Source: a virus
Lineage: Duplodnaviria; Caudoviricetes
DNA length: 62,516 bases
IMG/VR virus record: IMGVR_UViG_3300037313_000418
Location: 1 to 62,516 of that record
Strand: one strand, 5' to 3'
This document shows, one piece after another, positions 1-61,712 of the stretch. A program made the position numbers and the translations under genes. The notes under the pieces were generated by a model that was not told the DNA's origin, ran no database searches, and saw nothing but the letters and a program-made list of their open reading frames with translations. Numbering within the stretch: the stretch's first letter is position 1; every line of letters starts with the position of its first letter.

Positions 1-297
1 GCATACGGTTGTCGCCTTGCTGCTGGTATCGCAGCGGCAGAGGGCAACAGTGTGCTTGGGGTGGGCGTGCTCGTGGCGACCCCAAACGAATGCCTCCTTC
101 GCGTAAATTTCGTCTGGATGCAGGTAGCCAACCACTTCCACCTTGGCAGGCTGTACAGGCGCGGCATCGAGGGCGGCGAGTGCGTAATCATGCATTTGCT
201 CTGCGGTGTATAGCGGTTCGCTGCCGTCGCTATAGCCGTTGTAGTTCGTGTAAGGCAGGGGTGGCAGCACTTGCTGTTTCAGTGTGTTGTCAGTCAT
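1..297 (-). CDS. Modular accessory protein, partial (runs off window); alternative allele of 59673-61238
   Basis: Starts MTDNTLKQQVLPPLPYTNYNGYSDGSEPLYTAEQ; 132-297 is nearly identical to 61073-61238. Confidence 0.75.
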   Translation of the reverse strand, partial: MTDNTLKQQVLPPLPYTNYNGYSDGSEPLYTAEQMHDYALAALDAAPVQPAKVEVVGYLHPDEIYAKEAFVWGRHEHAHPKHTVALCRCDTSSKATTVC

Positions 298-559
298 GGC
301 TGTCCCTCGATTTCAACATGGCATCGGCAATTTTGTATGCGCCATCAGTGATGTGGTGCGGGCCGCAACCTGGCAATAGGTCGGGCGTAGGATTCATGAT
401 GAATGCCTGCATCGCCTTGGCTGCGAAGTAATCACGAACAGTAAGCCCGCCGTGAACCATTGCCTCTGGCTCCCATTCCGTGCTGCCATCCATTTCTACG
501 CGGACGCAACGCAGCTCTACAACTTGGCCAAATGCTGGCCCGCCTGTTTTCTCGTCCAT
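290..559 (-). CDS. Phage hypothetical protein (GLTVRDYFAAKAMQ motif family)
   Basis: Recurrent phage motif GGPAF...RDYFAAKAMQ...AYKIADAML; purine-rich RBS upstream. Confidence 0.75.
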   Translation of the reverse strand: MDEKTGGPAFGQVVELRCVRVEMDGSTEWEPEAMVHGGLTVRDYFAAKAMQAFIMNPTPDLLPGCGPHHITDGAYKIADAMLKSRDSHD

Positions 560-560
560 A

Positions 561-1862
561 TCACCCCTCCCTCTTATCCGACTGCACCGACTGCTGGCGA
601 AGGGCGGCGATTGTCTTACCGCAGTGATGGCAAAAGTTCATACTATGTTCAGCAGGGGTGCCGCCCTCAGGGAAATGCCACGCCTGCCCGCAACCAGTTT
701 GCCAGCAGTAGTCGTCACCATCGAAATGCCATTCGCAAGCCTCCGCATCCTTGCTGTCCTGCTGGGAGAGGGCGGCCTCCAGTTCCACAATACGCGCATC
801 GGCTTCCGCCTTGAGTCGGCCCGGCGTTTTGCCGTTGACGTTTTGCAGCGTGACCAGCAGATTCAGGCCGTCCGGCGTGGTGAAGCCGATTTCCAGATAG
901 TTCGCGCCGCCTTTCTCGCGGAACTGGTCGGCAAAAGCAGCCGCGAGAACTTGGCTTGCGCCGCCTTCTAAAGCCATGTTTATACCGCCATCTTTTATCG
1001 AAATTTCACGCAGCATAGTGGCAGCGCTAACCTTGTCGGCAAGCGCTTCCCGCAGCTTCGCGTTTTCTTCTTCCAGTTCGTTTATCCGCTCATCCTGTGC
1101 TGGCGTGGCGGCTGCTGCACCAAGTTTGAGGCGCGCTTCAATTTCTTCGCATGCGGTTTCCATGCCGCCACGGAACTGTGCGTCTTCAAGCAGGCTGGCA
1201 GCGGCACGAGTTCCCGCTATCGCTTGGCGCACGGCTTCCCACACCAATGCCTCGGCAAGCTCGATGCACTGGTCGCACGAAATATCCTCGTCGGTTTGCT
1301 GCGGCGTGGCGGCAGCAAGGTAGTCACGCAGGAACCTTGCGCTATCGCAGGTGGCGGTGGTTTCCGAGTAATGGCACACATCACATACCGACATTTCATT
1401 GTCGAATGCTTGCGCCAGATAGTTCAGCATGTCGCGGTCATTGCGAATGCCCAGCGGCGGAAGCAAGTCCACATCCTGCCCGCCTGCATTTGCAGCCGCA
1501 CTGGCGGCAGTAGGGCCGTCATACAGCGCCACCATGCCGTCGCTATGCTCCTTGTGCAGCATCATGCCGCGCCCAGCGATGAGCGGATCAGCCAGCTTTT
1601 GCAGTTCGTCGGCGCGCGCATAGGCAATAGGCTGCCCGCCTGCATTGGCGGCTGGCGTGACTGGGGCGGATTGCAGGGCGAGATCGGCGCGGACGTATTC
1701 AATGTCATTGTCGTGCTGGATGTCCTCGCACCAGCAGATTTCATCGGTGTCATCCTTGTATTTTGGGATGGGCATGCCATCGGCGCTGTGCTGGAGCCAA
1801 ATGCGCTCAGGCCACGTTTTCAGGTTTTCCACTGCCTGCTGCTTGTCTTGTTCGTTGCTCAC
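561..1862 (-). CDS. Modular accessory protein with C-terminal Zn-ribbon (CGQAW...FCHHCGK)
   Basis: 433-aa ORF of short domains joined by Ala/Pro/Gln linkers; shares modules with 61713-62516. Confidence 0.8.
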   Translation of the reverse strand: MSNEQDKQQAVENLKTWPERIWLQHSADGMPIPKYKDDTDEICWCEDIQHDNDIEYVRADLALQSAPVTPAANAGGQPIAYARADELQKLADPLIAGRGMMLHKEHSDGMVALYDGPTAASAAANAGGQDVDLLPPLGIRNDRDMLNYLAQAFDNEMSVCDVCHYSETTATCDSARFLRDYLAAATPQQTDEDISCDQCIELAEALVWEAVRQAIAGTRAAASLLEDAQFRGGMETACEEIEARLKLGAAAATPAQDERINELEEENAKLREALADKVSAATMLREISIKDGGINMALEGGASQVLAAAFADQFREKGGANYLEIGFTTPDGLNLLVTLQNVNGKTPGRLKAEADARIVELEAALSQQDSKDAEACEWHFDGDDYCWQTGCGQAWHFPEGGTPAEHSMNFCHHCGKTIAALRQQSVQSDKREG

Positions 1863-1883
1863 TTCATTCCCCCTTAATAATTT

Positions 1884-2090
1884 TCATCTGTCGATAATTG
1901 CCACAGCACCCAGCAGACAAACACCACAATCAGCACAGTCAGCAGGCTTAGCGCTATCTTCATCGTCTATCTCCGCATCGCATATCTGACATTCCTCGTC
2001 CACGCTGACACCATGCGAACAGGCTAGATCGGCATCGAACCAGTCTGCTAGCGTGGCGGCGTAGTCGAGGCCAGGCACTATCCGCTCCAC
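1884..2090 (-). CDS. Small Cys-rich hypothetical protein
   Basis: In operon order, overlaps the ninB stop; CxxC pairs. Confidence 0.45.
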   Translation of the reverse strand: MERIVPGLDYAATLADWFDADLACSHGVSVDEECQICDAEIDDEDSAKPADCADCGVCLLGAVAIIDR

Positions 2091-2449
2091 TTCACGCCAC
2101 GTTCAGCGCCGAATGCCGCGATCAGTTCCAGCAAGTCCGAGAACTCGCGCTTCGTCATGTTGCTAGTCGATTGGCCCAACACTACAAAGCCGGTTCCATC
2201 CAGGTTCGGCACCACGTCTTGCCGCTTCAGGCTGCTGCTGAAAATGTGCTTCCAGCTCTCGGCGTCCAGGTAGCGGCCATGCCAAACCACTTGCGCTGAT
2301 ATGTCGGACAAGTATCCCCATAGAGCCGCGTTCTGCTCCAGGTTGCGAGTTGCTGGCGACACTCGCACCACATAGCCGACAGGTGCCGCGTGAATCGCGC
2401 CGGCTATGTGATTGCGGTTCGTGTCGGTGACGGTGAAGAACTGCTTCAT
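2078..2449 (-). CDS. ninB: NinB/Orf-family recombination protein
   Basis: TRNLEQNAALWGYLSDIS...WK...GQSTSNMTKREFSDLLELIAAFGAERGVKW. Confidence 0.85.
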   Translation of the reverse strand: MKQFFTVTDTNRNHIAGAIHAAPVGYVVRVSPATRNLEQNAALWGYLSDISAQVVWHGRYLDAESWKHIFSSSLKRQDVVPNLDGTGFVVLGQSTSNMTKREFSDLLELIAAFGAERGVKWSG

Positions 2450-2952
2450 CAGCGAATGTCCAGCCTCGTTCCTTGTGCCAGCATCGCACCAGGCACTTCC
2501 ACGCCAGCCTTGAGCGCATCCTTGATTGCAGTCTTATCCGGCGATGGCGGTGGTGGCTCAGGCTGACGCATGAACTCCGCAGGGATCAGGCCCGGCTCGA
2601 AAATATCCACGCTGGCCGGGTTGCTTTTGATCGCCAGGGCGAAGTGCGGGCAGTCGATTTTTTTCACACCCGCGATTTCCATGCAGGTTTTCAGGTATTC
2701 GCGCACATGGGCGGCGCGGTTCTCGATACGCTTGCGGCGCTCGGCCATTTCCTTTTCGGCGGCCTTGATGGCTTCCGCCGTGGCTTCCAAGTTCTTGACG
2801 GCATAGGCCACGTTCTGCGCCTTGACTTCGAGCGGATAAGACTCCGCTTCGATGGTGTCGGCAATGGCTACCTGATCGTCTTGCGCATCCATCAGGCGAT
2901 CTACCATTGCGCGGTATTCGGCGGCGATGTGATAAAGGGCTAGTGCGGTCAT
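2449..2952 (-). CDS. Siphovirus Gp157-family protein
   Basis: LYHIA start, coiled coil, SNPASV...PDKTAIKDALKAGVEVPGA.L. Confidence 0.85.
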   Translation of the reverse strand: MTALALYHIAAEYRAMVDRLMDAQDDQVAIADTIEAESYPLEVKAQNVAYAVKNLEATAEAIKAAEKEMAERRKRIENRAAHVREYLKTCMEIAGVKKIDCPHFALAIKSNPASVDIFEPGLIPAEFMRQPEPPPPSPDKTAIKDALKAGVEVPGAMLAQGTRLDIR

Positions 2953-2960
2953 GGCTTGCC

Positions 2961-3338
2961 TCAGAACGGGATTTCGTCGGGAAACGACTCATCATTGCGA
3001 GAGTTAGGCTGCTGGCGTTTCGTTGGCGCATCTTCGCGCTTGCCGCCTTGCAGAGCAACGTCAGCAACACGTACATCCATCTGCTTGCGCTTGTTGCCCT
3101 CCTTGTCCGTCCATTCGCGCTCAGTCACGTTGCCGCTGATCGTGACCGACTGGCCTTTGACGAGGTAAGGCGCGAGCGATTCGGCGCGTTTGCCATACAA
3201 GGCGCAATTCCAGAAAATTGCTGGCTTATCCTTGCCTTGATTGTCAGCGACGGCAAAGTTAGCAACGGCGTCGCCGCCCGGAGTGAAGCGCACTTCGGCG
3301 TCACGTGTGATGTTCCCTGCTAGGCAAATAACGTTCAT
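2961..3338 (-). CDS. ssb: Single-stranded DNA-binding protein
   Basis: GNITRDAEVRFT OB-fold start; acidic DEIPF C-terminus. Confidence 0.95.
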   Translation of the reverse strand: MNVICLAGNITRDAEVRFTPGGDAVANFAVADNQGKDKPAIFWNCALYGKRAESLAPYLVKGQSVTISGNVTEREWTDKEGNKRKQMDVRVADVALQGGKREDAPTKRQQPNSRNDESFPDEIPF

Positions 3339-3346
3339 GGCTTTCC

Positions 3347-3964
3347 TTAGTTGGTTACTTCGAGATCGGTCTTGCGGGCTTCATACGCGGCTTGCAAGAC
3401 TTTCCGCGCTGTCGCGTCTGCTCGCTTCCATGCGCCGGCATAAACGCCTTTTAGAGCCTCCATGTCGTCGCATTCAAGCATGGCAGTGCAGCAGGCATCG
3501 ACTTCATGTTCGGGCATCAATGCAGGTTTTGGCTGTGCTTTAACGGTCGCCTGCTGTGCAGGCTTGGCCGGAGCGTGCGAAGCGGCGTTGCCGTCGTCGT
3601 CGTCCTGGTACAACCCGGTAATCGCCGCCAGCGCATAGCGGCGGGCGTATGTCATGGCACTGCCGTACCCTTGCGGATCGTTCTTCGGCAGCGGCACAGT
3701 CGCCGTGTCCTCGATCCATTCGCCGGACGAGTGAACCAAGCGTGTAGTTAGGGCGAGGGTGCCAGGCTCAGACGGAGAGGGCGCTTGCAGGAACATGATT
3801 CCCTGCTCGTTCAGCGCAGGTTTGATCGCGTCGATCACTGCCGGCAGATCGGCGTAAGTGCTCTTGAAGTGCGGGTTCTTCGCATCCTTCGTTGCAAAGG
3901 TAATCGCCTTTTGCGCGGCTACCAGTGCCGGCGCGATCTTGTTGATGGTTTCGCTTGTTTTCAT
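3347..3964 (-). CDS. erf: ERF-family single-strand annealing recombinase
   Basis: KDAKNPHFKSTYADL...QGYGSAMTYARRYALAAITGLYQDDDDG. Confidence 0.9.
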   Translation of the reverse strand: MKTSETINKIAPALVAAQKAITFATKDAKNPHFKSTYADLPAVIDAIKPALNEQGIMFLQAPSPSEPGTLALTTRLVHSSGEWIEDTATVPLPKNDPQGYGSAMTYARRYALAAITGLYQDDDDGNAASHAPAKPAQQATVKAQPKPALMPEHEVDACCTAMLECDDMEALKGVYAGAWKRADATARKVLQAAYEARKTDLEVTN

Positions 3965-4098
3965 TCGATTCCTCGTAAAGTAAGTATTGCTGCTCTTCTT
4001 CCTGCTCCTGCTGCTGCCGCCAATCAGCGCCGCTCATTGCAGCCTCCGTAATAGTCGCCGGATCAAATACCGAATCCGGCCCGCCAAGCATGTGTGAA

Positions 4099-5979: not shown

Positions 5980-6219
5980 TCAGGCTCCAGCTTTGGCTAG
6001 GGCAACGATGTCGAAATCAGTTTCGCGACCTTGCGCATACCGTCCAGCTTCAGAGAAGGATGCGATGCGAATATGATTTCCTTCCGCATCAAGAATGTCC
6101 CCAAAGTAGCGGCCGTCGTAATCATCTAGATGTCGGATCGCGACGGTGTTGCCGGCTCTTGTTATGTATGTTTCGCCAACAGACATTGTCATCGGCACTG
6201 CTGCTTGTGCTGTTGCCAT
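5980..6219 (-). CDS. First gene of the PL operon, hypothetical
   Basis: Start MATAQAA after GGGAGA; downstream of PL. Confidence 0.7.
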   Translation of the reverse strand: MATAQAAVPMTMSVGETYITRAGNTVAIRHLDDYDGRYFGDILDAEGNHIRIASFSEAGRYAQGRETDFDIVALAKAGA

Positions 6220-6275
6220 CTTCCATCTCCCTGTCACTTGCCGCCTGGGGCGGGTTGTTTTGATTCGATGAAGCA

Positions 6276-6315
6276 ATTATGCGCTAGAAAAACTAGTAAG
6301 ACAAGAAAAACTAGT
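6276..6315 (-). promoter_or_regulatory. PL promoter with two CI/Cro operators (OL)
   Basis: Minus strand TTGTCT-N17-CATAAT; operators GCTAGAAAAACTAGT (6283-6297) and ACAAGAAAAACTAGT (6301-6315) match the OR palindrome ACTAG-N5-CTAGT. Confidence 0.8.
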
Positions 6316-6376
6316 ATAAAAGAAAGTAATTAAGCAAGCTTGTTACTCGATATTTTTTGAATATGCTGAGGTTTGC

Positions 6377-6402
6377 AAAGAAATACCGGCAAGGGGCCGG
6401 TA
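6377..6402 (-). terminator. Intrinsic terminator after the 6425-6721 gene
   Basis: TACCGGC-loop-GCCGGTA followed by TTTCTTT on the minus strand. Confidence 0.7.
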
Positions 6403-6424
6403 CATGGGCAGTTTGCGACGCGGA

Positions 6425-6721
6425 TTAATGCGTCGTGTTTGCCGCCTCTTTTAGAGCGATGGGGATGAGATGATTTATTTCGTTGCCAAGATCAGCAAGC
6501 AGCCACCTTGCATTGTTTTTCGTTGCGGTGTTCTGGTGCTCAAACCCTTCCATAGCCATCAAGCTGGCCAGGGCTGCTAATTGTGCTGCGCGCATGGCTA
6601 AATAGTCCCCGGCATCTCCATCAAAAACAGAAACCTGCATTCCCGGGAAATTTGAATACACGCCCAAAAGTTTTTGGCTTTCCGGTGGTTTTGCGGCGTT
6701 GCTTACTTGCTGTGCTTCCAT
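6425..6721 (-). CDS. SOS-regulated small protein, candidate antirepressor
   Basis: RBS AGGAG; LexA box ~40 bp upstream; own terminator; function inferred from context only. Confidence 0.6.
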   Translation of the reverse strand: MEAQQVSNAAKPPESQKLLGVYSNFPGMQVSVFDGDAGDYLAMRAAQLAALASLMAMEGFEHQNTATKNNARWLLADLGNEINHLIPIALKEAANTTH

Positions 6722-6759
6722 CCACATCTCCTGCTCACAAAAATGTTGTAACGACTTAT

Positions 6760-6779
6760 TACTGTATAAGCATACAGTA
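6760..6779. promoter_or_regulatory. LexA (SOS) box
   Basis: TACTGTATAAGCATACAGTA matches the proteobacterial CTGT-N8-ACAG consensus. Confidence 0.9.
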
Positions 6780-6875
6780 TTATTTTAATGATTGTACCCC
6801 TAAAGAGTGTCATCAGGGCAATAATTACACGGTGTAACTATTCGTGTCTATTGTTGATAGATACACTTTGCGGCT

Positions 6876-7136
6876 ATGAGAGACATAGCCCCGTTTGGCC
6901 TGCGCATTCCTGCTGACCTAAAGAAGCAACTTGAAGAAGGGGCGAAGAAGAATCTACGCTCGCTTAATGCTGAAATGATCGTGCGTCTGAGTGACAGTTT
7001 TGAACGCAGACCGCTCGCGGATTATTCGGACGGTGATCTGGTGGCAGAGCTAATGAACAGATACGAGCGCGGTGAAATCTATATTCGACTCGGCAGGCAA
7101 TTACCAGAGGATAAGGATGGCGGCGTAAGGCGTTAA
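6876..7136 (+). CDS. Arc/Mnt-family ribbon-helix-helix regulator
   Basis: PFGLRIPADLKKQLEEGAKKNLRSLNAEMIVRLSDSF; palindrome TTACACGGTGTAA at 6825-6837 upstream. Confidence 0.9.
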   Translation: MRDIAPFGLRIPADLKKQLEEGAKKNLRSLNAEMIVRLSDSFERRPLADYSDGDLVAELMNRYERGEIYIRLGRQLPEDKDGGVRR

Positions 7137-7316
7137 TGCCGCAGATACGCAACGCCATGACAATAAAAACCGGCTTAATCTATTCACTTCTCATTAATGA
7201 GAATTCAGGGGCTAGTCACCGTTTGAGCGAGCAACAACTTTGATATCCAACAGCCACGCCATGAGGTGGCTGGAATAGCATCAGCGCATTGTTCTTTTAA
7301 TAAAGAGTGCTGACGC

Positions 7317-7625
7317 ATGGCCCATGCCAAAACCTACGACAAAATTGCACCCATAGCAGAAGAACTAAGGCGCACGCTTCCAGGGGAAAAAGCGGGAGAA
7401 GTGCTTGGGGTGAGTGTGAGCCAGATGCGGCGGATTATGGCAAAGGCGAAGCGGGATGCCGCCATGCCACCTTGGACGGCTGGGCTCGACATCCGCACGG
7501 CTAATGTCCTGCTGGCGGCCGGCTTCACTGATAAAGACCAAGTGCGAGAAGCGATCCAGCGGGGCAGGGATATCCCGTGGTTGAAGGCTTTGAGGTTGGA
7601 AATCGTCAGGCGGTGGCTGGAGTAA
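7317..7625 (+). CDS. HTH protein with RNAP alpha-CTD-like C-terminal region
   Basis: AGEVLGVSVSQMRRI (HTH); GLDIRTANVLLAAGF resembles the alpha-CTD L-x-x-R-(S/T)-A-N-x-L motif. Confidence 0.55.
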   Translation: MAHAKTYDKIAPIAEELRRTLPGEKAGEVLGVSVSQMRRIMAKAKRDAAMPPWTAGLDIRTANVLLAAGFTDKDQVREAIQRGRDIPWLKALRLEIVRRWLE

Positions 7626-7626
7626 T

Positions 7627-7652
7627 AAAAAACCGGCCTGAGCCGGTTTCTT
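7627..7652. terminator. Bidirectional intrinsic terminator
   Basis: AAAAAACCGGC-CTGA-GCCGGTTTCTT between convergent genes. Confidence 0.8.
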
Positions 7653-7655
7653 GGG

Positions 7656-7769
7656 TTACTTCATCGGTGCCGATCGCCAATGCTGGCGTACGAACTGCGG
7701 CCGGCCATAACTGAAGCGGGTATAGGCTGAAACGAAGACGGATTTGTGATTTAAATGTGATTTGGCCAT
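7656..7769 (-). CDS. 37-aa basic peptide (not in ORF track)
   Basis: MAKSHLNHKSVFVSAYTRFSYGRPQFVRQHWRSAPMK; ends just before a terminator; CII-type site upstream. Confidence 0.6.
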   Translation of the reverse strand: MAKSHLNHKSVFVSAYTRFSYGRPQFVRQHWRSAPMK

Positions 7770-7809
7770 GCTTATTTGCTTGAAAGGTTGACGTCGTTGA
7801 CGGGAACCC

Positions 7810-7842
7810 ACGCTGGGTATCCTTATGTGCAACCAAATGCAA
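7810..7842 (-). promoter_or_regulatory. Putative CII-dependent promoter
   Basis: Minus strand TTGCATTTGGTTGC (TTGC-N6-TTGC), then N13, then a weak -10 CAGCGT. Confidence 0.5.
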
Positions 7843-7888
7843 AAATGGCAATTAATCGCTCATCGCGGAACGGGAGCTGGAACGGAAA

Positions 7889-7920
7889 TAAAAAACCCGC
7901 ACTCAGATCGATGCGGGTTG
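7889..7920 (-). terminator. Intrinsic terminator
   Basis: Minus strand AACCCGCA-loop-TGCGGGTTTTTTATTT. Confidence 0.75.
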
Positions 7921-8076
7921 TCATAAACTGGTGCCGGTATATTTCCCGACCGTCGACGCCGGTAGAGCATTTAATGCTGATCACTGCTCGTTGCTTGTTG
8001 CAGATCGAGGAATATCTTAGCAATATGGCATTAGTGGGATTTGATATTTCGCAAAGGTGCCAGAGCTGCGGGCAAT

Positions 8077-8102
8077 AAAAAACCCGCCTGGGTGGCGGGT
8101 TG
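8077..8102 (-). terminator. Intrinsic terminator ending the cI operon
   Basis: AAACCCGCC-TGGGT-GGCGGGTTT with a U-tract on the minus strand. Confidence 0.8.
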
Positions 8103-8146
8103 TTGTTGAATCGGGGAAGACTTAGCCGTGTTGGGCGACGAGCGCC

Positions 8147-9133
8147 TCAATCTGTTCGTTGATGTTCGCCTGCTTGTTCGCCTGTGGCTGGTGTGATTCC
8201 GTGGTTCTGCGCTGAATCACTTTTACCACTTCCTTGGATCGCTGGTTCACCATTCTCATTGCTTCCATTAGTGGCTGCGGGGTTTGGTGTGCCTTCATGG
8301 TTATCTCCAGTTAAAACAAGCGGGTATGTGAACAAATTTACTTCTGGCGTTGAAAAATTAATCTTCGGCGTCAACGCAGAATGCAGCATTTTGCTAAGGT
8401 TAGCAAGCATTCCTGTTGGGCGCTCCACATTAATAAAGAGGTTTTTAGCCTCTTTTCTATCGATCACAAATCCATGTGACGGGTAGGCAGAAACAAGATT
8501 GTGTAACCCGGTTGCTCGCAAATTCCCGCTTTTCTCCGCCAGCCTCCTGCCATACTCAAGAGCAATTTCCATTGCCCTTTGCATTTCAGCAAGTTTCATC
8601 GGGTCAATTTGGCCGGCAATAGGCTCAAATAACCCAATGGTGAGCGTCGAGGAAATTTCTGAAGCCACCTTAGTTGAGAGTCCGGCGTTGCTTGTAAGTT
8701 CGGTCACATACTGGGAAAACGCATACATGGCCTGATTTTGCAGATAATTTACAGCTTGAATAATGTCCAAGCCAGAATTTCTACCTACGATTTCATCATT
8801 TTTCTTTACCTGGATATCGAGCGGGCCCAACTCACTCATATCGTCGAGGTACAAGCGGGAAGCTCCTACGACGATTAAGGTTCCTGCGCTTTTGCAATAC
8901 CTTGGCACCAGTGCTCCAAAGCTTCCATAGGTGTGCTGTAAGGCTCGCGCAATCCGAAACCCGGCATGCGGATCACCGCCAGGAGTGGCAAGTGCAATCA
9001 GCGCTTTCTCAGATTTCTTGTTTTCTAGGGCTTGGCAAACTAATTCATACCCGCTCCCGGAAACCCCGCCTGCGTAGGTGATTATGTCGGTTGTTTCGAT
9101 AACCGGTTGCTCTTGTTCTTGTGCGGTTTGCAT
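8147..9133 (-). CDS. SDH-family ClpP/SppA-fold serine protease
   Basis: TPGGDP, CKSAGT (Ser), ELGPLD (Asp), YPSHGFVI (His) motifs; AT-richer than the flanking genes. Confidence 0.85.
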   Translation of the reverse strand: MQTAQEQEQPVIETTDIITYAGGVSGSGYELVCQALENKKSEKALIALATPGGDPHAGFRIARALQHTYGSFGALVPRYCKSAGTLIVVGASRLYLDDMSELGPLDIQVKKNDEIVGRNSGLDIIQAVNYLQNQAMYAFSQYVTELTSNAGLSTKVASEISSTLTIGLFEPIAGQIDPMKLAEMQRAMEIALEYGRRLAEKSGNLRATGLHNLVSAYPSHGFVIDRKEAKNLFINVERPTGMLANLSKMLHSALTPKINFSTPEVNLFTYPLVLTGDNHEGTPNPAATNGSNENGEPAIQGSGKSDSAQNHGITPATGEQAGEHQRTD

Positions 9134-9282
9134 AAGTTGAGTTTTTGATTTTGAGTTTCGGGAATTTATCGTCGTTCGCGGTTTTGCCCATCCCATAAAC
9201 ATGGGATGCCGGGCAGGGGTAGGGCTATTTCGGCAAGCTAGTACATTGCTTTGCAGGCCGCGGAAGCAACCTTGGCGACAAA

Positions 9283-9870
9283 CTACCGGCACTCGATTTC
9301 GTTGCGAATGCCAGATGGGTTGCATCGGTAGCGTTTATTCCCAAGTTCATCCAATTTCCGGTTGGTGGCGTTAGCGTTCTGGTTCAATTGCTGCGTAATC
9401 TGCTGGGCGTTTGCGTCAGCTTGTATCCGAGCAATAGCCGCATTGCGCTTGTCGGACTCTATGGAGTGGTGATCTTTCCAGAGATTGTAGGCTTCAAGCG
9501 AAATTGGCTGGCCATTAGCTTTGCGCACCATGTTTTCTACACACTCTGCTGTCGCATTGTCTGCCAGGATTTTCCCTTTTGAGTCGTTGTTTTTGAATGA
9601 TTTGAATTTACATTCGGCTGGCGGCGGGCCAGATCGAAGCCGGTCTGCCTCAAGCATTTTCAATGCTCTCGCATTTGGATCGCCGCTAGACGTGGATGGG
9701 CCGCCGAAACTGGGGGGCACAATGTTTACTTTCTGAGAGTCGGCGCTAGCACATGGAACATCCGAGTATTCCATCTTTCCCTGGGCGTTTTTGCACTTAT
9801 AGACCTGAGCATGAGCGCACGAGCATGCCACCACCAGTATCCAGAATAGAGAAGCGGATAGCTTTTTCAT
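9283..9870 (-). CDS. Exported DUF4124-like protein
   Basis: Signal peptide, then AQVYKCKNAQGKMEYSDVPC. Confidence 0.8.
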   Translation of the reverse strand: MKKLSASLFWILVVACSCAHAQVYKCKNAQGKMEYSDVPCASADSQKVNIVPPSFGGPSTSSGDPNARALKMLEADRLRSGPPPAECKFKSFKNNDSKGKILADNATAECVENMVRKANGQPISLEAYNLWKDHHSIESDKRNAAIARIQADANAQQITQQLNQNANATNRKLDELGNKRYRCNPSGIRNEIECR

Positions 9871-9894
9871 TTTTATTTCCCTTTCGATCAGGGC

Positions 9895-10191
9895 TTACTT
9901 GCTCAAAAAGATCCATGCCCACGGCAATGCAAAGCCACCAAGAAGAAAGCCGATGATGGCGCCGCCGTCTGGAGCCATTTGATCTTTCCCTTTTTTATTG
10001 CGGTGCAAGCAATAGAAGTAGCCTGCTGCGGAGCCAATAAGCGCACAGATAACCACTAGTCCGAGGCCATTCCCGCCAGAATCATCGGTGTCAGTATTTC
10101 CCATTCCACCGTATCCAGCATGGGCACTCATGGCAATTGCCGACATGCTTATTGCCGCTGCAATTAATTGCAACTTAGTGGTTTTTTTCAT
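9895..10191 (-). CDS. Small membrane protein (signal peptide plus 2 TM)
   Basis: Strong RBS GGAGG; hydrophobic segments; downstream of cI. Confidence 0.75.
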   Translation of the reverse strand: MKKTTKLQLIAAAISMSAIAMSAHAGYGGMGNTDTDDSGGNGLGLVVICALIGSAAGYFYCLHRNKKGKDQMAPDGGAIIGFLLGGFALPWAWIFLSK

Positions 10192-12662: not shown

Positions 12663-13202
12663 ATGAACTCGACTTTTGAAACTGGCGGCAGCGGCGGAAA
12701 TGCCACAACTCACGATTGGCTCACGCCGCCGGAGATCCTTCAAGCGCTTGGCAATTTTGACCTTGACCCCTGCGCAAGCCAGTTTCAACCGTGGCGTACC
12801 GCAGCGGCACAGTACACGATTGAGGACGATGGTTTGGCGCGCGAGTGGTCCGGGCGCGTCTGGTGCAATCCGCCGTATGGCCCACATGCGGAAAAATTCT
12901 TGAAGCGAATGGCGGAGCATGGCAATGGCATTTTGCTTATCTTTGCCAGGACCGAAACCAAGGCATTTCAAGAGTATTGCTGGCGTCGCGCCGATGGAAT
13001 GCTGTTCATGGCTGGACGCATCAAGTTCAGATTGCCAGGCGGCGGTACTGCAGGGGCCGCGGGTGCGCCATCTGTGCTTATCGCTTTCGGCAAAGACAAT
13101 GCCAATGCGCTACGGGATAGCGGCATTGCTGGCTACTTCGTGCCACTAGAAAACCAGGATGAATGCGTGGCGCAAACCTCCTTGGCACTGGAGGCAGCAT
13201 GA
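12663..13202 (+). CDS. Phage DNA N6-adenine methyltransferase
   Basis: DWLTP, FDLDPCA and VWCNPPYG motifs. Confidence 0.9.
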   Translation: MNSTFETGGSGGNATTHDWLTPPEILQALGNFDLDPCASQFQPWRTAAAQYTIEDDGLAREWSGRVWCNPPYGPHAEKFLKRMAEHGNGILLIFARTETKAFQEYCWRRADGMLFMAGRIKFRLPGGGTAGAAGAPSVLIAFGKDNANALRDSGIAGYFVPLENQDECVAQTSLALEAA

Positions 13203-36394: not shown

Positions 36395-39300
36395 ATGTCC
36401 AGTAATCCGTTTGACCAGTTTGATGCGACCGCAGGCAGTGGCGGGAATCCCTTCGACACGTTCGATGATTCACAAAAAAATAAAGGCAAAGGCGTTCTTG
36501 GCCATGCGCGCGACCTTGGCTTATCACTCGCCAAGGGGGTTGTCGCTGTGCCGGAAGCCGCTGTCGGTCTAGCTGATATCGCTACCGGTGGACAAGCAGG
36601 CAAGGTACTGGCCAATGAGGATGGTGCCATTGGTTTCCGCCCAAAGCAGGCTAAAGAGTTTTTGTCCGATCTGCATACCGACCAGTACAAGGAGCAGCAG
36701 CGCCAGTTCGCTAATGCTGACGGCATCCTCGACAAGACCGTTACCGCCGTCAAAAATCCGTCCCTGATCGCCAATGCTGTAGTCGAATCGCTGCCACTGA
36801 TGGGCGCCGGCGGCGCGGCAGGCCGTGGTGCCATGGCGGTAGCGCCGCGGATCGGTGAACTGGGCGCCGCAGCTGCCGGCGAAGGCATTGTCGGCGCCGG
36901 TTCCTCGGCCGAGCAAATCCGCCAGGAGACCAAAGACGGCTTAATGACGCCAGAGCAAAGCGCGCTGGCTGCCGGCGTGGGTGCCGCAACCGCTGGATTC
37001 GGCGTATTGGGCGGCAAGGCGGCGCAAAAAATGGGAATTGGCGATATCGATACCATGGCCGTGCAAGGCAAGAAAGCCTTGGCGCAGCCGGTCGATGCTG
37101 CTGCCGCTAATAAGGGCATCACGCGACAAGTCATTGAAGGCGCGATCTCGGAAGGCTTGCTGGAAGAACTGCCGCAATCCGTATCCGAAACCCTGATGCA
37201 AAACATCGCCCTGGACAAGCCGTGGAATGACGGGCTGGATGAGTCCATTGTCATGGGCACCCTGTCGGGCATGGCTATGGGTGGCGGTGCTGCTGGTGTG
37301 CACGGCGTTGCCTCCAGCCGGCACGCCGTGCAAGCGCCCGCCACAGAACAAGCGCCAGCCACCGATGAAGGCTTGTCGCTAGCTCCGATCGATCAAGCTG
37401 CGCAGCAGGCGACCGCCAACGACATTGAGGCGTTCCCAGGCGGCACATTGGCGGTTCAACGTGCATTTGATGCGCGCGACAAGAAGAGCCGGCCGCCACT
37501 TTCTATCCTACCGCTCGCACCAACCGATGGGGTTGACTTCGTCCCGAGCGGCATTGCGCCGGTCAAGCCATCCGAGGCCATGAGCCTGGACCCGAACGCA
37601 GGCATGCTGTCGACTGCCGCGGCTACTGCCGTGGATGGTGGTGCACATGCCGTGGCACAGGCGCGAGAACAAGCGCAACTGGCGCTGGAGGAAGCAAGAA
37701 AGGGCGGCAAGGCGGTCATGGAAACCAAGCCGGTCGCTACTGATCTATCGAGCCGTTCTTTCGAGGAGTTGAGCGCGCAATTCCGCATTGCTCAAAACAA
37801 GGAAATCCGCACGGCGATCGCGACCGAGTTACAGCGGCGCCGCGCCGAGCAGAAAGCGACACAAGGAGCAAGCAATGGCCCAGCTGCTGACGTTTTACCC
37901 GGAGTTGCAACAAGCAATCGACCAGGGAATATTGACGCCCCAGCAGGCGTGGATGCTGTACTGGGACGAGCAAGTGAACCCGCACCTTCCGCCGCCGTTT
38001 CAGAACCGGCCGCTGCTGGACAAACTGGAACTGATGGACTTGCAGCCGGGCCCGGGCAGACTGCCGAACTGAAATTGCTAGCTGACTTGGAACAGCCGGG
38101 TTCCACACGCCAGGCGCAGTTTGATGCGCGCCGCCTGAATGCGCAGGCCACGTTGGATGATCTGCGAGCCAAGACGCACGTAGACAAGCAAGACCAGCAG
38201 GATGCACTGGAACAGGTCAAGCAGGAGTTGGACTCTGCCGCTCACGAAGCCGCCACCAGTCCGCAAAATGACCTGCCAGAGCCGACCCAAGCGCAGAAGG
38301 AAGCCGGCAACTACAAGAAGGGCCACACTCGCCTGCATGGCCTGGATATCGCCATTGAAAATCCTGCGGGCTCGATCCGTTCTGGCGTTGATCGTGACGG
38401 CAAGGCTTGGGAAAACCAGCTGCAGCACCACTACGGCTATATCAAGCACACCGAAGGCGCAGATGGCGACCATGTGGATACCTTCATCGGTCCCAAGGCG
38501 GATAGCCAAAATGTCTTTGTGGTGGACCAGATCGACCCGACTACCGGCAAATTCGATGAGCACAAGGTCATGTTGGGATTCGATTCGCTGCCGCAAGCCA
38601 GGATGGCTTACCAAGCGAACTATGCCAAGGGCTGGAAAGGTGGCAAGACCATCACCAAGACCAGCATAGACGAGTTCAAGGCATGGCTGGCCACGGGCGA
38701 TACGAAAGCACCGTTTAGCGGGAAACGTGCGGCGGAACACGGGAAAACCGTTTCGCTCACCGAGCCAAGCGGAACCGCTCCACAATCCGAACCACAAAAT
38801 ATTCCTAAAAATATTCAAGCGAGTGAGAACCAGGATACAGCAAAGGATGATTCCAATGTACCAACCGCTGACCCCCCAGCAAAGAATGCACCCGCTGTAT
38901 CTAATGACGCTACCACCGTTTCTGCTGATGAGCACGTGGCTGCTAATGGTGGAAAGGATGCTGCCGAAGGGCCGGAAGTAGGCAATGCCGATGTGACGCC
39001 GGCCCAGGATGCTGGCACCAAGCGCACGCGCGGCGTGCTGGCGAAGCTTGCCGAACGCAAAGGTGAGGCTGCACAGGATCCATCGACAGCCAAGAAGAAA
39101 CCGACCGAAAAGCAAAAGCAGGCCGCTGCAGTAGAAGCCATGCGCAAGATGCTGGGCGCTGAAGTGGGCGACACGATCACCATGACTTTCAAAGGCAGCT
39201 TCGGCTACCTGACGAGCGGCAAGCCCATGGTCATTGAAAGCATTAATAGCGATAAGAGCATTTATTTTCGTGATCCAGTGAACGGTTCGGGGACGTTTGA

Positions 39301-42300
39301 ATCGCTGTCGTCCATGCAGGCCGCCGCCAGGAATGCATTTGTCAAGTTGACTTGGACTGTAGAGCCAAAAGCAGAGCCGAAGCCGGCGCCGACCGAATCA
39401 GCGCCGGCGCCAGCCGCCAAACCCCAAAGTACACCACAGAATATTCCCGAAAATATTCCAGCTTCCGATGACAGCGCCAAGGCGCAGTCTGCTGCCACAG
39501 CCAAGATATCCGACTTCGGTCAGAAGATCGGCGGCGCCCGCAAGGACGTCTGGACATCATTCAAGGATGAGCTGAATGCCATCGGCGATGACGATATTGC
39601 CAATCAGCCGCTATCCAAGGTATGGCCGGCTCCGGATTACCAAGCGATGATCGATGCCGGCGCGGATCCGTGGATAGTCGGCTTTGCCCGTGCAACCCGC
39701 GATGAAGTGCCGGCAAAGCCGCGCACCAGTTACAAGGTGCGCAACTGGGTCGAGAAGGTCCGCATCCTACGGGAAATGACCACGAATCTGCTGGATGGGA
39801 CCTGGAGCAAGGAAACGGCGAGACGCGAGCTTGCCATGGCCGGCGCGGCATCGCGCGGCATGGCGGACATTGCCGGACGCATCGAGCTTTACACGCTGGT
39901 CGGCCATCGTCAGTCCCTAAGCGGCGTGCGCCTGTCGAGCGGCGAATACATGATGTACAAAGGCATCGAATACAAACCGCCTAAGGTTATGTGGACGGTG
40001 ACGAAAGACAGTTCTGCGACAGCGTTTAGCAACTGGCCGCGAGAATTGGCAATTGGCAACACCAGGCAAGAGGCGCTGGACAACTTCAAGGCCAAGTACG
40101 ATGCCATCGACATCAACCCGGTGCCTTCGAAGGAAGTCACGTTCGACATTTACACCAAACGCGAAGACAAGACGGTCTGGGTCGGAAAAAAAGTGGGGCG
40201 AAACCCGCTCTTGCTGTCCGGCCCATTTAAGACGGTCAAGGATGCGCGCGAGTACAAGGATAATAATCAGGCAGAGCTGGTCGCCAAGCTGGAAAAATCC
40301 AAAGAAATCCCGCGCGAGCGCCGCGACACTAATGAGCCCCGCATCGGCGAAGACATGCGCAACGGCCAGGACGTTACACCGGAAATGTTTGGTGACGCCT
40401 TCGGCTTCCGCGGCGTGGAGTTTGGCAACTGGGTCGAGCAAGGCCGGCGCCAGAAAGACTTGAACGATGCCTATGATGCCTTGATGGACATGGCTGCGGT
40501 TCTGGGCATCCAGCCAAAGGCCATTTCCCTGAATGGCGAGCTCGGCCTGGCGTTCGGCGCGCGCGGCAGCGGTGGCGTCAATCCCGCATCCGCCCATTAT
40601 GAACCTGGTAAGGTCGTCATCAACCTTACCAAGCGGCAGGGTGCCGGTAGCCTGGGGCATGAGTGGTGGCATGCGCTGGACAATTATTTCTCGCGTATGC
40701 GCGCCAAGGGCGGCGACTTCATGACGACCGCGCTGGACGTTTCACTGGCCGCGCGCGGGGCGGATTTCGTTGCCAATACCGCAGTCCGCAGGGAAATGAT
40801 TGCAGCCTTTGGTGAAGTGGTGAAGGCGATCCGGCAAACGTCACTCAAGGCACGTTCCTCGAAACTTGACGCAAAGCGCAGCAAGGAATACTGGACGACC
40901 GGCGAGGAAATGGCCGCGCGTGCGTTCGAGTCATACCTGATTTCGAAGCTGCAGGACCAGAATGCATCGAACGACTACCTGGCGAATATCGTAGCGCCGG
41001 AAACGTGGAAAGCCGCCGAGGCGCTTGGCTTTGAGTTGGACGATAGCTTTCCTTACCCGACCGCCGGCGAAATGCCGCTCATTCGCGCCGGATTTGATCA
41101 CTTTTTCCAGACGATTCAAACCCGCGAAACAGATCAAGGCATTGCGCTGTACGACCGCGGCGGCATGTTCTCGATCGGCATGCCAGTCAAGGAAGTGCAG
41201 GAAGAAGTCAGCCGAATCGCAGCCAGCTGGAAAAATGCACCGAAAATCAATGTGGTTGAGTCAGTCTATGACCTGCCATTCCAAGCGCCGCGCGACATTC
41301 GCGGTGTGTACGCGAAAGGCCAGGTCTGGATTGTGGCCGAGAACAATAATTCGGCTTTGGATGTGCAATCCGTTCTATTCCACGAAGTGCGTGCTCATGC
41401 TGGCTTACGGGGCTTGTTCGGCAGCCGGCTTTATCATGAGCTGCGTGCCATCGCGATGAAGAATGCCGATATCCGTAACCTAGCAACCACCTGGCGGGCG
41501 AAGAATGGCGACTTGCTGACGCAATATAAAGAAAAATACGGCGAGCAGCGCGGTCGGGAAATCTGGCAAATGACGTCAATTGAAGAAGCACTTGCCGACG
41601 TGGCCGGCGAGGGAAAGACCATTACCGGATTTCAGCGATTCATGAACGCGCTGCAAAAGGCACTGCGGGCGATCGGCTTTGATGCGCTGGCTAATTGGTT
41701 GGAAAACCGCACTGATGCCGAAGTCATGGCTTTGCTGGCCAAGGCTCGGCGGTATATTGAGGAAGGCGAGCAAGCAGCGGTGTTGGCTGGCCAGGCAGCG
41801 CCTGCGTATGCGCGCGGTGAACCACAGCGCCCGAGTGTCGATACCGATGACCGCTTAGTCAACATCTTTACTGAAATCGCTAAGCAGGACGATGCCTTCC
41901 GTCTGCCTGGCTCCAACGCTACCAGCTTGGAAACTGTGATCGCTGACATGATGCCAGGCGCGACGGTGGACGATACGGGCAATATCCTCGACTTCCTCAA
42001 CGACGAGGACCGCCAATCGTGGCCGGTGGACCGCTCGTGGGCAATCCGCCCCGGCAAAAATGCTGATGAAGTGGCGTATGTCTACCGGAACAACAAAGCC
42101 AAGGAAGTTTGGCTAGACATATCGAATTGGAAAGAAGGTAAGCAAGGATATGCCGTCTATCAGGTCGTGGCGACCTGGGCGCATAACAATGGTTATACCT
42201 TCATTGGCGACCCGGCCGGACTGTCAGACAAAGCGCTGTACCGCCGTACAGAGCAAATGATTTCATCCGCGCTGCGCCATGGCACGACCAAGCACTTGGC

Positions 42301-55292: not shown

Positions 55293-56393
55293 TTACTTTG
55301 TCGGCTTAACAAGCTTGCCGATTTTGTGGCGGATATATCGGGTTGTCATGCCTTCGGTTGTGTGCCCGAGCAAGTCCTGAGCAGCCTTGGTTCCCTTTAT
55401 CTCATCGACGTCGGTGCCTGCTTTCGGGCGCATGTCGCGGAATTGAAGCTCTGCTTTCGGAATGCCTGCGGCATCCCGCGCTTTGTCAAACCTGGTCCTC
55501 ATGGTGTACTCGTTCATCGCCTGACCGGTTTCTGTAACCAGCAGGGCAAGCGGGCGTACGGAAAATTGGCGCTTGTAGTCGGCGATCTCGTCAAGTAGGG
55601 TCTTGAGTTCGCCCTCGATCAGGATTCGCAAGGGCGCCTTGGTTTTGCCCTGTTTAATCCACAATATGCCGTCCTTGATGTCGGTCTCGGACATTTTGTA
55701 GACGTCTGCCGGCCGCTGGCCGGTCAGGTAGGCCAGGCGTAGGGCGTATTGCAACGCTTGACACGAATGTTTCAGTAGGCGGTCGAACATTGCCTGGTCA
55801 ACGTACACATCCCTGCCGTCTTCTTTGAATTTTTTGACGCCATCGCTGGGGTTCGTGTTCGAAGTCAGGCCGTTTTCCCGGGCGTAGTTGAAAATGTGGC
55901 TAAACAGAGCCAGTTCACGATTTGCCCGCACTTGGCCAAGCTTCGGATCAATCGGCAAGGGTTCTTTCTCGCGCTTTACTCGCTCTTCGTTCCTTCTCGC
56001 AGCGTCGGCCTTCGCTTTGTCGGTGCGCCACGCCTTGTATTGCCCAATGTGTATCGGTTCAATATCATCGAGAAGTGCCGGTGGATTGTTGAAGAACTGG
56101 TAAAGGCATTCCAATTCCTTCAAATTATCCTTGCGAGTGCGCGGCGCTTTGGTCGGAAGCACGTCCTTAATGTAGCGCTCCGCGGCATACTTGAAAGTCA
56201 CCAATCCATTGCGCGGCGCGTTGCTCATGGTGAGCTCTGCCCACTTCTGAACCGCAAGAACGTAATCGCTGCCGAGCGGGATCTCCTTTCGCGGCTTGGC
56301 TCCCGTATCCAGGTAGTAGTACGTCCCTGCTTTGCGATGCCGAGCGCGCATTCCTGCGGGGAGATTGGTGTTCCTTGTCGGCTTCCGTCCCAT
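55293..56393 (-). CDS. int: Tyrosine integrase
   Basis: LTGQRPADV, KQGKT, FRDMRPK, LLGH...TTRY catalytic motifs. Confidence 0.95.
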   Translation of the reverse strand: MGRKPTRNTNLPAGMRARHRKAGTYYYLDTGAKPRKEIPLGSDYVLAVQKWAELTMSNAPRNGLVTFKYAAERYIKDVLPTKAPRTRKDNLKELECLYQFFNNPPALLDDIEPIHIGQYKAWRTDKAKADAARRNEERVKREKEPLPIDPKLGQVRANRELALFSHIFNYARENGLTSNTNPSDGVKKFKEDGRDVYVDQAMFDRLLKHSCQALQYALRLAYLTGQRPADVYKMSETDIKDGILWIKQGKTKAPLRILIEGELKTLLDEIADYKRQFSVRPLALLVTETGQAMNEYTMRTRFDKARDAAGIPKAELQFRDMRPKAGTDVDEIKGTKAAQDLLGHTTEGMTTRYIRHKIGKLVKPTK

Positions 56394-57059: not shown

Positions 57060-57275
57060 CTAGGCGGCTTGCCTGCGTAATGCATCGATTGCCAAATTTG
57101 CCGCATCAATCGCCAGGTCGAGCACGGGAGACAATGACGGGAATTCCGGCTTGATGCTTCGGATGCCATCGGCGACATCGGTCAATCGCTTGATTTCGGC
57201 CATGCGCTTTTGCTGTAGCCATTGCTTGCGCAGCTCCCTATCCCTGCGCCGCTCTTTCAATTCTGCCGGCGTCAT
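57060..57275 (-). CDS. Hypothetical protein
   Basis: Coupled ORF in the left operon. Confidence 0.6.
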   Translation of the reverse strand: MTPAELKERRRDRELRKQWLQQKRMAEIKRLTDVADGIRSIKPEFPSLSPVLDLAIDAANLAIDALRRQAA

Positions 57276-57610
57276 CCTTCCCCTCCCGTTGATTGAGCAC
57301 CGGAAGAAAACATGTCAACCGTAAGCTCGCAGCGCGGTTCCGGTATGCGCTCGCCAGCCGGCACGAAGGCGATGCACTTTACTTCGCCGTCTGGCATTTC
57401 GCGCCATTCAACTGCCTCGCCGCGAAACGATGCGCCAATGATTTCGCAGCGCTCGTTGTCGTCGCATTCCTCCAGCGGCACGCCTTCGCGCATCGACTTG
57501 TCACGCTGGCAGTTGCCGCATTCCCCGGTGAGGAAGCTATAGCCAACGTCGCCGTTGCTCGGTATCCATTGCTCGCCTGGTAGTGGGCCGGGAGTCGGTT
57601 TGTATGTCAT
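57272..57610 (-). CDS. Cys-rich hypothetical protein (AQST cassette 1)
   Basis: ATGA-coupled; ends in the shared AQST linker. Confidence 0.7.
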   Translation of the reverse strand: MTYKPTPGPLPGEQWIPSNGDVGYSFLTGECGNCQRDKSMREGVPLEECDDNERCEIIGASFRGEAVEWREMPDGEVKCIAFVPAGERIPEPRCELTVDMFSSGAQSTGGEG

Positions 57611-58062: not shown

Positions 58063-58067
58063 GATTT

Positions 58068-61711: not shown

Positions 61712-61712
61712 G

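Follow-up and report, generated by a model that had tools for sequence, protein, structure and literature searches.

An anchored mosaic of protein modules in the early accessory locus of a P22-like temperate soil phage

The virus record IMGVR_UViG_3300037313_000418, a single contig of 62,516 bp that was analysed over its whole length and is called the window here, carries at its two ends two versions of an accessory locus of a P22-like temperate phage. Within the early-left operon, the locus occupies the accessory part that is flanked by the recombination genes on one side and xis/int on the other. In both versions near-identical sequences, in the following termed anchors, alternate in colinear order with fillers that are unrelated to each other. 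It is probable that this anchored mosaic results from homology-guided cassette exchange by relaxed phage recombination, which we regard as the best reading of the patterns described below.

The two ends were compared by BLASTN and by an exact-word scan, the left end being designated version A and the right end version B. All seven anchors named in a preliminary description of this DNA were found in place and colinear. The first one (13-35/60864-60886) is an exact match of 23 bp, or of 27 bp with one mismatch if it is counted from 9/60860, and codes for CDTSSKA. It is followed by the shared N-terminal module of the proteins a3 and b3 (132-297/61073-61238; 166 bp, five mismatches, 97.0%) and by a gene-boundary anchor of 31 exactly matching bp (559-589/61440-61470), which consists of the final codons QSDKREG of one gene, its stop codon and the Shine-Dalgarno sequence for the gene that follows, and of which a weaker third copy lies at 61708-61740. 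Exact matches of 32 bp (745-776/61978-62009) and 28 bp (1085-1112/62252-62279) code for AALSQQDSKDA and AATPAQDER, respectively, the latter between two swapped modules of a1 and b1; all of these elements are read from the minus strand. Further to the right, 15 bp are identical at 1299-1313/62358-62372 and 119 bp at 1309-1427/62398-62516, the latter reaching the contig's final base; there are exactly two occurrences of this 119-mer. Two of the seven need qualification. The 32-bp identity is real, but it is not an isolated anchor, since it forms the upstream edge of a zinc-ribbon module common to both versions (603-776/61836-62009, minus strand; 174 bp, 86.8%). The 15-mer does match exactly, but is merely one copy of a repeated motif coding for Ala-Ala-Thr-Pro-Gln that adjoins a 30-nt in-frame indel. 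For the 23-mer, two matches were counted in the window versus 0.00 expected (100 shuffles, 2 mismatches allowed), so that chance does not explain the anchors. None of the pairs of fillers occupying the same slot reached a BLASTP E<1.

All genes of the locus lie on the minus strand. Version A comprises a3 (1-297), of which only the first 99 codons are present because the contig start cuts the gene and leaves its reading frame open on the 3' side, a2 (290-559), an 89-aa gene with a match to phrog_2201 (3e-18), and a1 (561-1862), whose product of 433 aa is, according to HMMER, a chain of at least five independently occurring modules. The full-length a3 product of 374 aa is seen in a sister phage, IMGVR_UViG_3300037420_000269 (G403, loci L001 and L002; a3 at L002:3915-5039). 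Version B comprises b1 (61713-62516), which corresponds to a1 and lacks its 5' part because the contig ends there, the extra 89-aa gene bX (61442-61711) between two copies of a QSDK..E tail, b2 (61235-61438; 67 aa) and b3 (59673-61238), a multi-slot protein of 521 aa with eight anchors (A0-A7; seven of 7-11 aa, one of 5 aa) and fillers unrelated to those of a3. The genes a2 and b2, each confined to its version, are unrelated. Their exchange (290-559 versus 61235-61438) had been recognized before; the additional gene of version B had not. Reading frames are preserved, as claimed earlier, all ORFs being open in both versions. The peptides MTDNTLKQQV, AALDAAPVQPA, CDTSSKA, KAEASSDAA, AAPSAAPAQ, AAPAQPQEP, QP(A/S)AQ and GKTAPEAGGQEGGAA and one helical module are common to a3 and b3, and the remainder between these peptides is unrelated; a1 and b1 have a module ending with YLAAA, the peptides AATPAQDER and AALSQQDSKDA and the zinc ribbon in common. 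At the gene junctions, the tails QSDKREG* (twice), QSDKEQ*, GQEGGAA*, ADQGSK*, AQSTDQQG*, AQSTGEQS* and AQSTGGEG* were found, whose codons embed the GGAG-type Shine-Dalgarno sequence of the next gene, often with a stop/start overlap. Hence, non-homologous genes possess short conserved junction sequences in common. The earlier characterization of the anchors as linker-coding is correct for many of them, but some are gene tails with a Shine-Dalgarno sequence, one lies inside a predicted helix and one is a module edge.

Regarding function, a1, a2, the a3 part, b1, bX, b2 and b3 did not match any Pfam or NCBIfam family at E<=0.01 and gave only weak matches below this threshold. A fold search with the a1 model retrieved no PDB entry at E<=0.001, and its matches in BFVD were uncharacterized phage proteins only. 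A role of the modules in early host take-over or counter-defence is likely. Residues 96-126 of a3 (L002:4200-4292), the filler of slot 2, contain two CxxCxGxG-like motifs, a pattern that we take to be that of DnaJ-type zinc fingers, and several further fillers are Cys-rich cassettes resembling zinc ribbons.

The doubled locus at the contig ends is in all likelihood due to assembly wrap-around through a heterogeneous population and does not reflect biology. The contig ends truncate a3 on the 3' side and b1 on the 5' side, and the right end re-enters positions 1309-1427 with 119 of 119 bases. The sample would contain several related phage haplotypes, and the assembler would have left the circle via haplotype A at the left end, returned via haplotype B at the right end and stopped after 119 bp of already used sequence, a length that plausibly reflects a de Bruijn word length of 119. 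A single genome would have one copy of the locus, and the circle with version B would measure 61089 bp (62516-1427). That both loci reside in one genome, as diverged paralogues or as diverged terminal repeats of a linear genome, is extremely improbable. Such an arrangement would fit the presence of A and B in one contig and their depths, which are of the same order, but the copies lie exactly at both contig ends where the end genes are cut, the right end breaks off after 119 bp that repeat 1309-1427 exactly, genuine terminal repeats would not differ from each other, and the contig of the sister phage (L002) has a single copy, located between the recombination genes and the integrase.

The depths themselves, although rough, are not what one genome with both copies would be expected to give. 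On window positions 1-4000, contigs from the soil runs X1, X2 and X3 were placed, depth being one figure per contig. Run X1, in which 0.95 of the sampled words were present, is probably the source sample and hence not independent. Its A-type pieces (1-42, 13-170 and 560-774) showed depths of 9.6-14.7, its B-type contigs, which bridge every anchor pair (35 to 132, 297 to 559, 776 to 1085 and 1112 to 1309), depths of 13-18.4, and the shared part (1309-4000) depths of 19.8-25; these per-contig figures are noisy, and one B-type piece (141-297) reached 31. A loose end at position 9 reads into the sequence of window 60830-60859. Each version is below the depth of the unique backbone and the sum of both is close to that of the shared part, which corresponds roughly to two haplotypes on one backbone. 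As a separate observation, the X1 piece over 141-297 has B-type letters at 181, 190, 217 and 261, and its depth of 31 approximates the sum of the A-type and B-type contigs feeding it. This hints at a recombinant haplotype that is A-type left of 170 and B-type right of it, within the shared N-terminal module.

It could be argued that the alternating pattern itself is a chimera, generated by hopping of the assembler between strains at shared words. The sample is indeed heterogeneous and the locus breaks assemblies: the 72-kb contig G402 (IMGVR_UViG_3300037313_000574), which is rated 100% complete and represents the same phage as G403 (99.9-100% identity), has its start at the position corresponding to window 1424 and its end within a3 (L002:4469), so that the locus is absent from that assembly. 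However, version A recurs base for base in the assembly of the sister phage and in contigs of another run. Run X2, from another study, contains it without a single different letter over 1-297 and 367-1538, its divergence beginning at 1663. Since version A is 100% identical in a separately assembled phage (window 1-1538), neither version is an assembly invention. Moreover, the B-type contigs that span all four anchor pairs stem from a separate assembly with k=31, as deduced from contig overlaps of 30 bases and presumably the word length of the Logan assemblies; the length of most anchors falls far below the 119 bp of the assembler's stop, and the frames are intact in A and B. A chimera is therefore very improbable. 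The possibility raised beforehand that one allele is an assembly artefact did not materialize, and the notion of two versions of one locus stands, as both occur in one run and version A also in other assemblies.

A further question is whether version A belongs to the backbone of the window. Compared to L002, the window is 100% identical over 1-1538, differs over 1539-1618, is again identical over 1619-1663 and is unrelated beyond. It is quite possible that version A is foreign, i.e. that the first 1308-1663 bases stem from the co-occurring sister phage (G402/G403 type) and were joined to the contig by the assembler. Besides the identity over 1-1538, this is suggested by the fact that the only independent carriers of version A (L002 and X2) have the sister backbone, and by the X1 contigs, which break at 1309 and 1634-1663, a branching node of 355 bp that short reads phase poorly. 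On the other hand, the A-type depth in X1 of approximately 10-15 exceeds the remainder left for a second backbone (25-19.8, approximately 5), which suggests, on rough figures, that some copies of version A are located on this backbone. Furthermore, one X1 contig spans 1309-1663 without interruption and includes the window-type patch. A foreign version A would alter the phasing only, and with it the word 'allele', but the anchored mosaic between two real haplotypes would stand. The patch itself (1539-1618 versus L002 2549-2630), 80 bp of equal length with approximately 18 substitutions and small indels, has the appearance of a short exchange within the gene, no anchors being obvious.

Since L002 extends the A-type path beyond window position 1, it allowed a comparison with the B side over approximately 5.2 kb (62516 down to 57271). 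Over this distance 21 colinear blocks were detected with unrelated sequence between them, fourteen of 21-49 bp with 91-100% identity and seven of 102-316 bp with 80-100% identity. Exact runs of 49, 33, 31 and 23 bp were present in addition to runs of 27-41 bp with at most one mismatch. The modular composition of the proteins emerged from protein searches. An exhaustive HMMER search with a1 yielded 2111 proteins at E<=0.001, and among the 150 matches listed each covers a single stretch of a1 (11-78, 110-190, 183-259, 240-370 or 372-423), apart from the sister allele P0001 and a weak broad match (P0115). The matching proteins differ in length, and the match is found at different places in them. 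Similarly, the a3/b3 profile gave 36 matches, each covering 5-25% of b3 except b3 itself, at varied positions. Single-module matches at varied positions indicate that the proteins of the locus are strings of independently occurring modules. The earlier proposal that swaps occurred between short shared sequences at module and gene boundaries is supported by both the comparison with the sister phage and these module-wise matches. Where the AlphaFold models are confident, their predicted structure agrees with a position of the anchors at module edges. In the a1 model (mean pLDDT 69) residue 185 is the last one of a helix, and a gap at 245-253 directly precedes the AATPAQDER anchor, placing it at the transition from this gap to the start of a helix (residues 245-254); in the b3 model the anchors at 186-194, 252-260 and 367-371 lie in low-confidence gaps next to confident segments.

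That the anchors served as sites of exchange is suggested by several lines of evidence. The first one is their similarity at synonymous sites. Only blocks of at least five identical residues were compared, so that every difference is synonymous. Seven linker blocks revealed 3 differences in 207 nt, compared to 28 in 234 nt for two conserved modules (Fisher p = 7e-6); the anchors are thus about ten times less diverged at synonymous sites than homologous modules nearby, and hence either younger than the modules or under stronger constraint. Simple co-inheritance with modules that are 80-88% identical would have left several differences per linker and does not account for so few.

The second line is provided by four cassettes of version B that are absent from the sister haplotype. 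Each of them is flanked in B by direct repeats of an anchor, which is single in L002. In b3, repeats of 18 nt (59704-59721 and 59836-59853; exact) lie 132 nt (44 codons) apart and enclose an extra zinc-ribbon cassette. The same holds for the gene at 59011-59676, whose N-terminal part is MazG-like: here, repeats of 20 nt with 95% identity (59234-59253 and 59360-59379), 126 nt (42 codons) apart, flank another extra zinc-ribbon cassette. Exact repeats of 18 nt at 58826-58843 and 59014-59031 accompany a 188-nt insertion relative to the sister phage, and the two QSDK..E tails around bX flank the fourth cassette. A weaker fifth case consists of tail repeats with 79% identity around the extra gene 57272-57610; in this region (57271-58098) three consecutive genes end with AQST..G/E tails containing a Shine-Dalgarno sequence (57279-57302, 57614-57637 and 58075-58098). 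All of these elements are located on the minus strand. To judge from their arrangement, the direct-repeat flanks are the footprint of a homology-guided gain or loss.

Thirdly, the fillers re-assort. The proteins searched yielded no more than four members of the a3/b3 scaffold, with A0-A4 and the CDTSSKA peptide in four of four and the final anchor in three of four. The slot 0 filler is common to a3 and b3, the slot 1 filler to a3 and protein P0158, and slots 2 and 3 contain four different fillers each. Since the groupings of slots 0 and 1 are incompatible, an exchange at or near the anchor between them is required. The tabulation of slot fillers in relatives that had been recommended thus disclosed re-assortment at the same anchors in these four family members. 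Besides, one contig of run X3, from a third study, joins the anchors at 776 and 1085, and a further breakpoint in relatives, at 1663-1680, lies where another Ala/Pro-rich linker is encoded.

The main alternative to exchange at the anchors would be that these sequences are conserved purely for their function, namely as ribosome-binding sites, translational-coupling signals or flexible linkers, and that illegitimate recombination combined with selection for in-frame products created the mosaic. The anchors would then mark viable joint positions, not sites of strand pairing. This explains the gene tails well, which embed a GGAG-type Shine-Dalgarno sequence with stop/start overlap, and the identity of linker peptides in all four family members fits a constraint acting on the peptides. 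Ea22 proteins, whose C-termini are otherwise unrelated, likewise share a K/R-G-E tail according to a previous study (PMC7093339), which points in the same direction. However, purely functional conservation leaves the synonymous near-identity unexplained (3/207 nt in linkers versus 28/234 nt in modules), it does not provide for extra cassettes flanked by direct anchor repeats that are single in the other haplotype, and the intragenic linkers have no ribosome-binding role. For these reasons, it is improbable that function alone shaped the anchors.

If homology-guided exchange is assumed, the following scenario would apply. The proteins are strings of small modules with sequences of 21-49 bp at the module and gene junctions, the former being Ala/Pro/Gln-rich linkers and the latter tail codons that double as the ribosome-binding site of the next gene. 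These junction sequences appear to be kept almost identical across the phage population, and single-strand-annealing recombinases of the phages would use the short identities as crossovers whenever related phages share a cell. A module plus its linker could in this way be replaced, inserted or lost in frame. Both phages encode single-strand annealing proteins, the window phage ERF and the sister phage a RecT-like protein, making the involvement of a phage annealing protein plausible; ERF in particular is not indicated by the gene content. The suggestion that ERF drives the process is not substantiated, because the second phage with version A lacks an ERF match and instead encodes the RecT-like protein (phrog_561, 1e-98), together with a RecE-like exonuclease, a NinB-like protein and RdgC. 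According to De Paepe et al. 2014 (PMC3945230), the pairing segment has to measure at least 23-27 bp for Red-beta and 31-34 bp for RecA, the latter independent of RecT; Erf of phage D3 recombined substrates of 78% identity as well as Red, and segments of approximately 100 bp inside genes were often exchanged. Between A and B, uninterrupted identities of 23, 28, 31 and 32 bp reach the pairing minimum of 23-27 bp, whereas some anchors are shorter (21-22 bp, and the 15-mer).

Two other systems were considered and rejected. A site-specific cassette system (shufflon or integron-like) does not agree with anchors that are more than a dozen different sequences in direct and not inverted orientation, albeit some of them have a 12-nt core in common with a neighbour. 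Apart from the integrase, no tyrosine recombinase was detected in a scan that did not extend to all small ORFs. The idea of a polyprotein cleaved at conserved sites appears unlikely as the anchors lack a single motif and no protease gene is predicted in the operon; a ClpP-like gene (8147-9325) lies outside of the operon of the locus.

Several points weigh against exchange at the anchors or against the phasing of the two versions. We infer the crossover role of the anchors from sequence patterns, and given the Shine-Dalgarno sequences in the gene tails and a possible constraint on linker peptides, selection could maintain their likeness without such a role. DNA was at hand for only two of the four scaffold members, and the nucleotide identity of the anchors refers to one haplotype pair. 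In the a1 model the anchor AALSQQDSKDA (residues 363-373) is situated inside a confidently predicted helix (347-377), and the b3 model has a mean pLDDT of 56.5 and no resolved structure over 51-191, so that three anchors are not covered by the domain-edge claim. The contig break of the sister assembly at L002:4469 is not at an anchor. As to run X1, its contigs over 181-261 all carry B-type letters and none covers 805-1072, i.e. the A path of the window is incompletely reproduced there; neither this gap nor the small word shares of X3 were counted as absence. The depths are noisy with one figure per contig, and the samples 3300037420 and 3300037313 may come from one campaign, which limits their independence. 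The attachment of version A (1-1308) to the backbone beyond 1663 is likewise putative, as all independent carriers (L002, run X2) have the sister backbone and diverge at 1539-1618 and from 1664.

Searches for further haplotypes gave a sparse picture. Scans of IMG/VR with b3, b1, the 31-bp anchor and the four-member alignment recovered again only IMGVR_UViG_3300037420_000269, and two of 63 IMG/VR loci with the conserved neighbour gene were close at the DNA level. The phage GenBank collection contained no close relatives, only distant matches to NinB, SSB and ERF and a 134-bp match in a Burkholderia phage. In metagenomes, none of 62 stretches was confirmed with a1, and the a3/b3 alignment revealed one distant contig of 1.5 kb (L004) that has only the N-terminal module in common. 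The genome scan with the same alignment confirmed none of seven stretches. A search with a 10-row alignment led to one locus in a metagenome-assembled genome (MAG) of Oxalobacteraceae with 67% over one module, and a DNA search of 401 Oxalobacteraceae genomes disclosed no close haplotype, 23 of them having short weak matches (65-87%, or 25-45 bp).

The locus resembles several known systems without being identical to any of them. Susskind and Botstein reportedly put forward the modular theory of phage evolution with its boundary or linker sequences, and Clark and co-workers are said to have described boundary sequences in coliphage HK620. Like the lambdoid boundary sequences, the gene-tail anchors (QSDKREG*, AQSTGGEG* and others) are located at the junctions of interchangeable early-region segments. 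By contrast, most anchors of the locus are intragenic, lie between protein modules and preserve the frame. Its early-left position between the recombination genes and xis/int is like that of the lambda exo-xis region and, going by P22 gene order, presumably equals that of the ea genes of P22. In adhesins, swaps flanked by motifs are known from the His boxes of T-even phages and from the collagen-like repeats in receptor-binding proteins of Streptococcus thermophilus phages. As in these tail-fibre adhesins, in which short conserved intragenic motifs flank variable segments and are thought to guide swapping recombination, short sequences border the variable segments here, but adhesins are virion proteins whose flanking motifs are copies of one motif, while the locus encodes early non-structural proteins and each anchor is different. 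Domains of the type found in large polyvalent proteins (LPD) are absent from a1 and b3 and present elsewhere in the window (36395-45784).

The tail of the Ea22 proteins, a common K/R-G-E end on unrelated C-terminal domains (PMC7093339), parallels the KREG-type tails of the locus. Unlike Ea22/ead, the locus proteins have no Pfam or NCBIfam match to this family and many more slots. The locus also agrees with the relaxed recombination of lambdoid phages, as described by De Paepe et al. 2014 (PMC3945230), in that temperate phages with an annealing protein, short flanking identities and intragenic exchanges of approximately 100 bp are involved. What differs from that account is the spacing of the identities, which recur every 50-300 bp at module or gene junctions and are reused by several unrelated fillers; besides, recombination was measured there, whereas the locus is known from sequence alone. 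Domain mosaicism, i.e. homologous fragments in otherwise unrelated phage proteins, was reported by Smug et al. 2023 (PMC10684548), and the modules of a1 and b3 each recur in other proteins and at other positions in the same manner. The text consulted of that survey stresses receptor-binding proteins, endolysins and replication proteins and does not contain the word 'linker', while the locus comprises early accessory proteins with conserved junctions. Exchange at short conserved sequences, also within genes, has already been published (PMC3945230, PMC10684548), and it is the resolution that is unusual here, not the principle. Within the limited collection of literature searched, no multi-slot, linker-anchored scaffold in early accessory proteins was found.

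As to the remainder of the phage, the contig makes up the whole assembly, is classed as linear by IMG/VR and has a CheckV completeness of 98%. Judged by its predicted genes, which include those of a P22-type portal, an Sf6-type small terminase, a capsid protein and a tyrosine integrase, it represents the genome of a P22-like temperate phage that was assembled from a metagenome almost completely and in circularly permuted form. The genes at both contig ends are all on the minus strand, and the operon runs leftwards from approximately 5800 to 1 and continues from 62516 to the integrase (55293-56393, minus strand; assigned by domain and family matches), which is its last gene. ERF, SSB, a Gp157/Gam-like protein and NinB are encoded in this operon upstream of the locus, and a DUF4224 gene and the integrase downstream. 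The gene of the ERF-family single-strand annealing protein (3347-3964, minus strand) matches PF04404 at 9.5e-27. Because the virion and tail genes end just before the integrase, attP is intact and the contig is a permuted circle. The host probably belongs to the Oxalobacteraceae, since the protein relatives are from Janthinobacterium and an uncultured Oxalobacteraceae MAG.

Inside the ERF gene, 3585-3605 and 3863-3889 are the sole stretches matched by one contig of high depth (95-313) in each of the three runs, with 254 differing letters between both stretches; the probable source is an abundant organism or phage with an ERF-like gene that is diverged but conserved at its ends. Among the virion genes, an ORF of 3129 aa (36395-45784, plus strand) codes for a large polyvalent protein with LPD37, InPase, LPD5 and LPD1 domains that is probably carried in, or ejected from, the P22-like virion. 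A low-G+C island at 6000-10000 (0.49 versus 0.55-0.62 elsewhere) encodes a 392-aa ClpP-like homologue of SDH/NfeD-type proteases (8147-9325) and a DUF4124 protein (9283-9870) and may be a moron or a defence insert. The early-right region contains a gene for a Dam-type N6-adenine methyltransferase (12663-13202, plus strand; PF05869 at 2.6e-11).

In practical terms, strain heterogeneity leads to imperfect end overlaps, by which an essentially complete genome is classed as linear and a doubled locus can be misread as a duplication. A more far-reaching idea, which we consider doubtful, is that a3/b3 and, more loosely, a1/b1 are an evolved cassette scaffold whose fixed adapters are kept nucleotide-identical for in-frame swapping of slots by annealing proteins; the mini-domains would then be small early effectors against the host or its defences. 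If true, early phage proteins would be diversified by a recombination-based system with a logic like that of antigenic-variation cassettes, but with a donor pool that is spread across co-infecting phages and prophages and does not consist of silent copies. Apart from this idea, if the anchors are crossovers, the natural haplotypes of one soil sample show phages in the process of building new early proteins by in-frame module swaps between junctions of 21-49 bp, one per 50-300 bp. The properties of annealing proteins, i.e. short and tolerant pairing, would thereby be linked to protein evolution at the level of domains beyond tail fibres and lysins, and the locus offers a scaffold with defined junctions on which the idea of exchange is testable.

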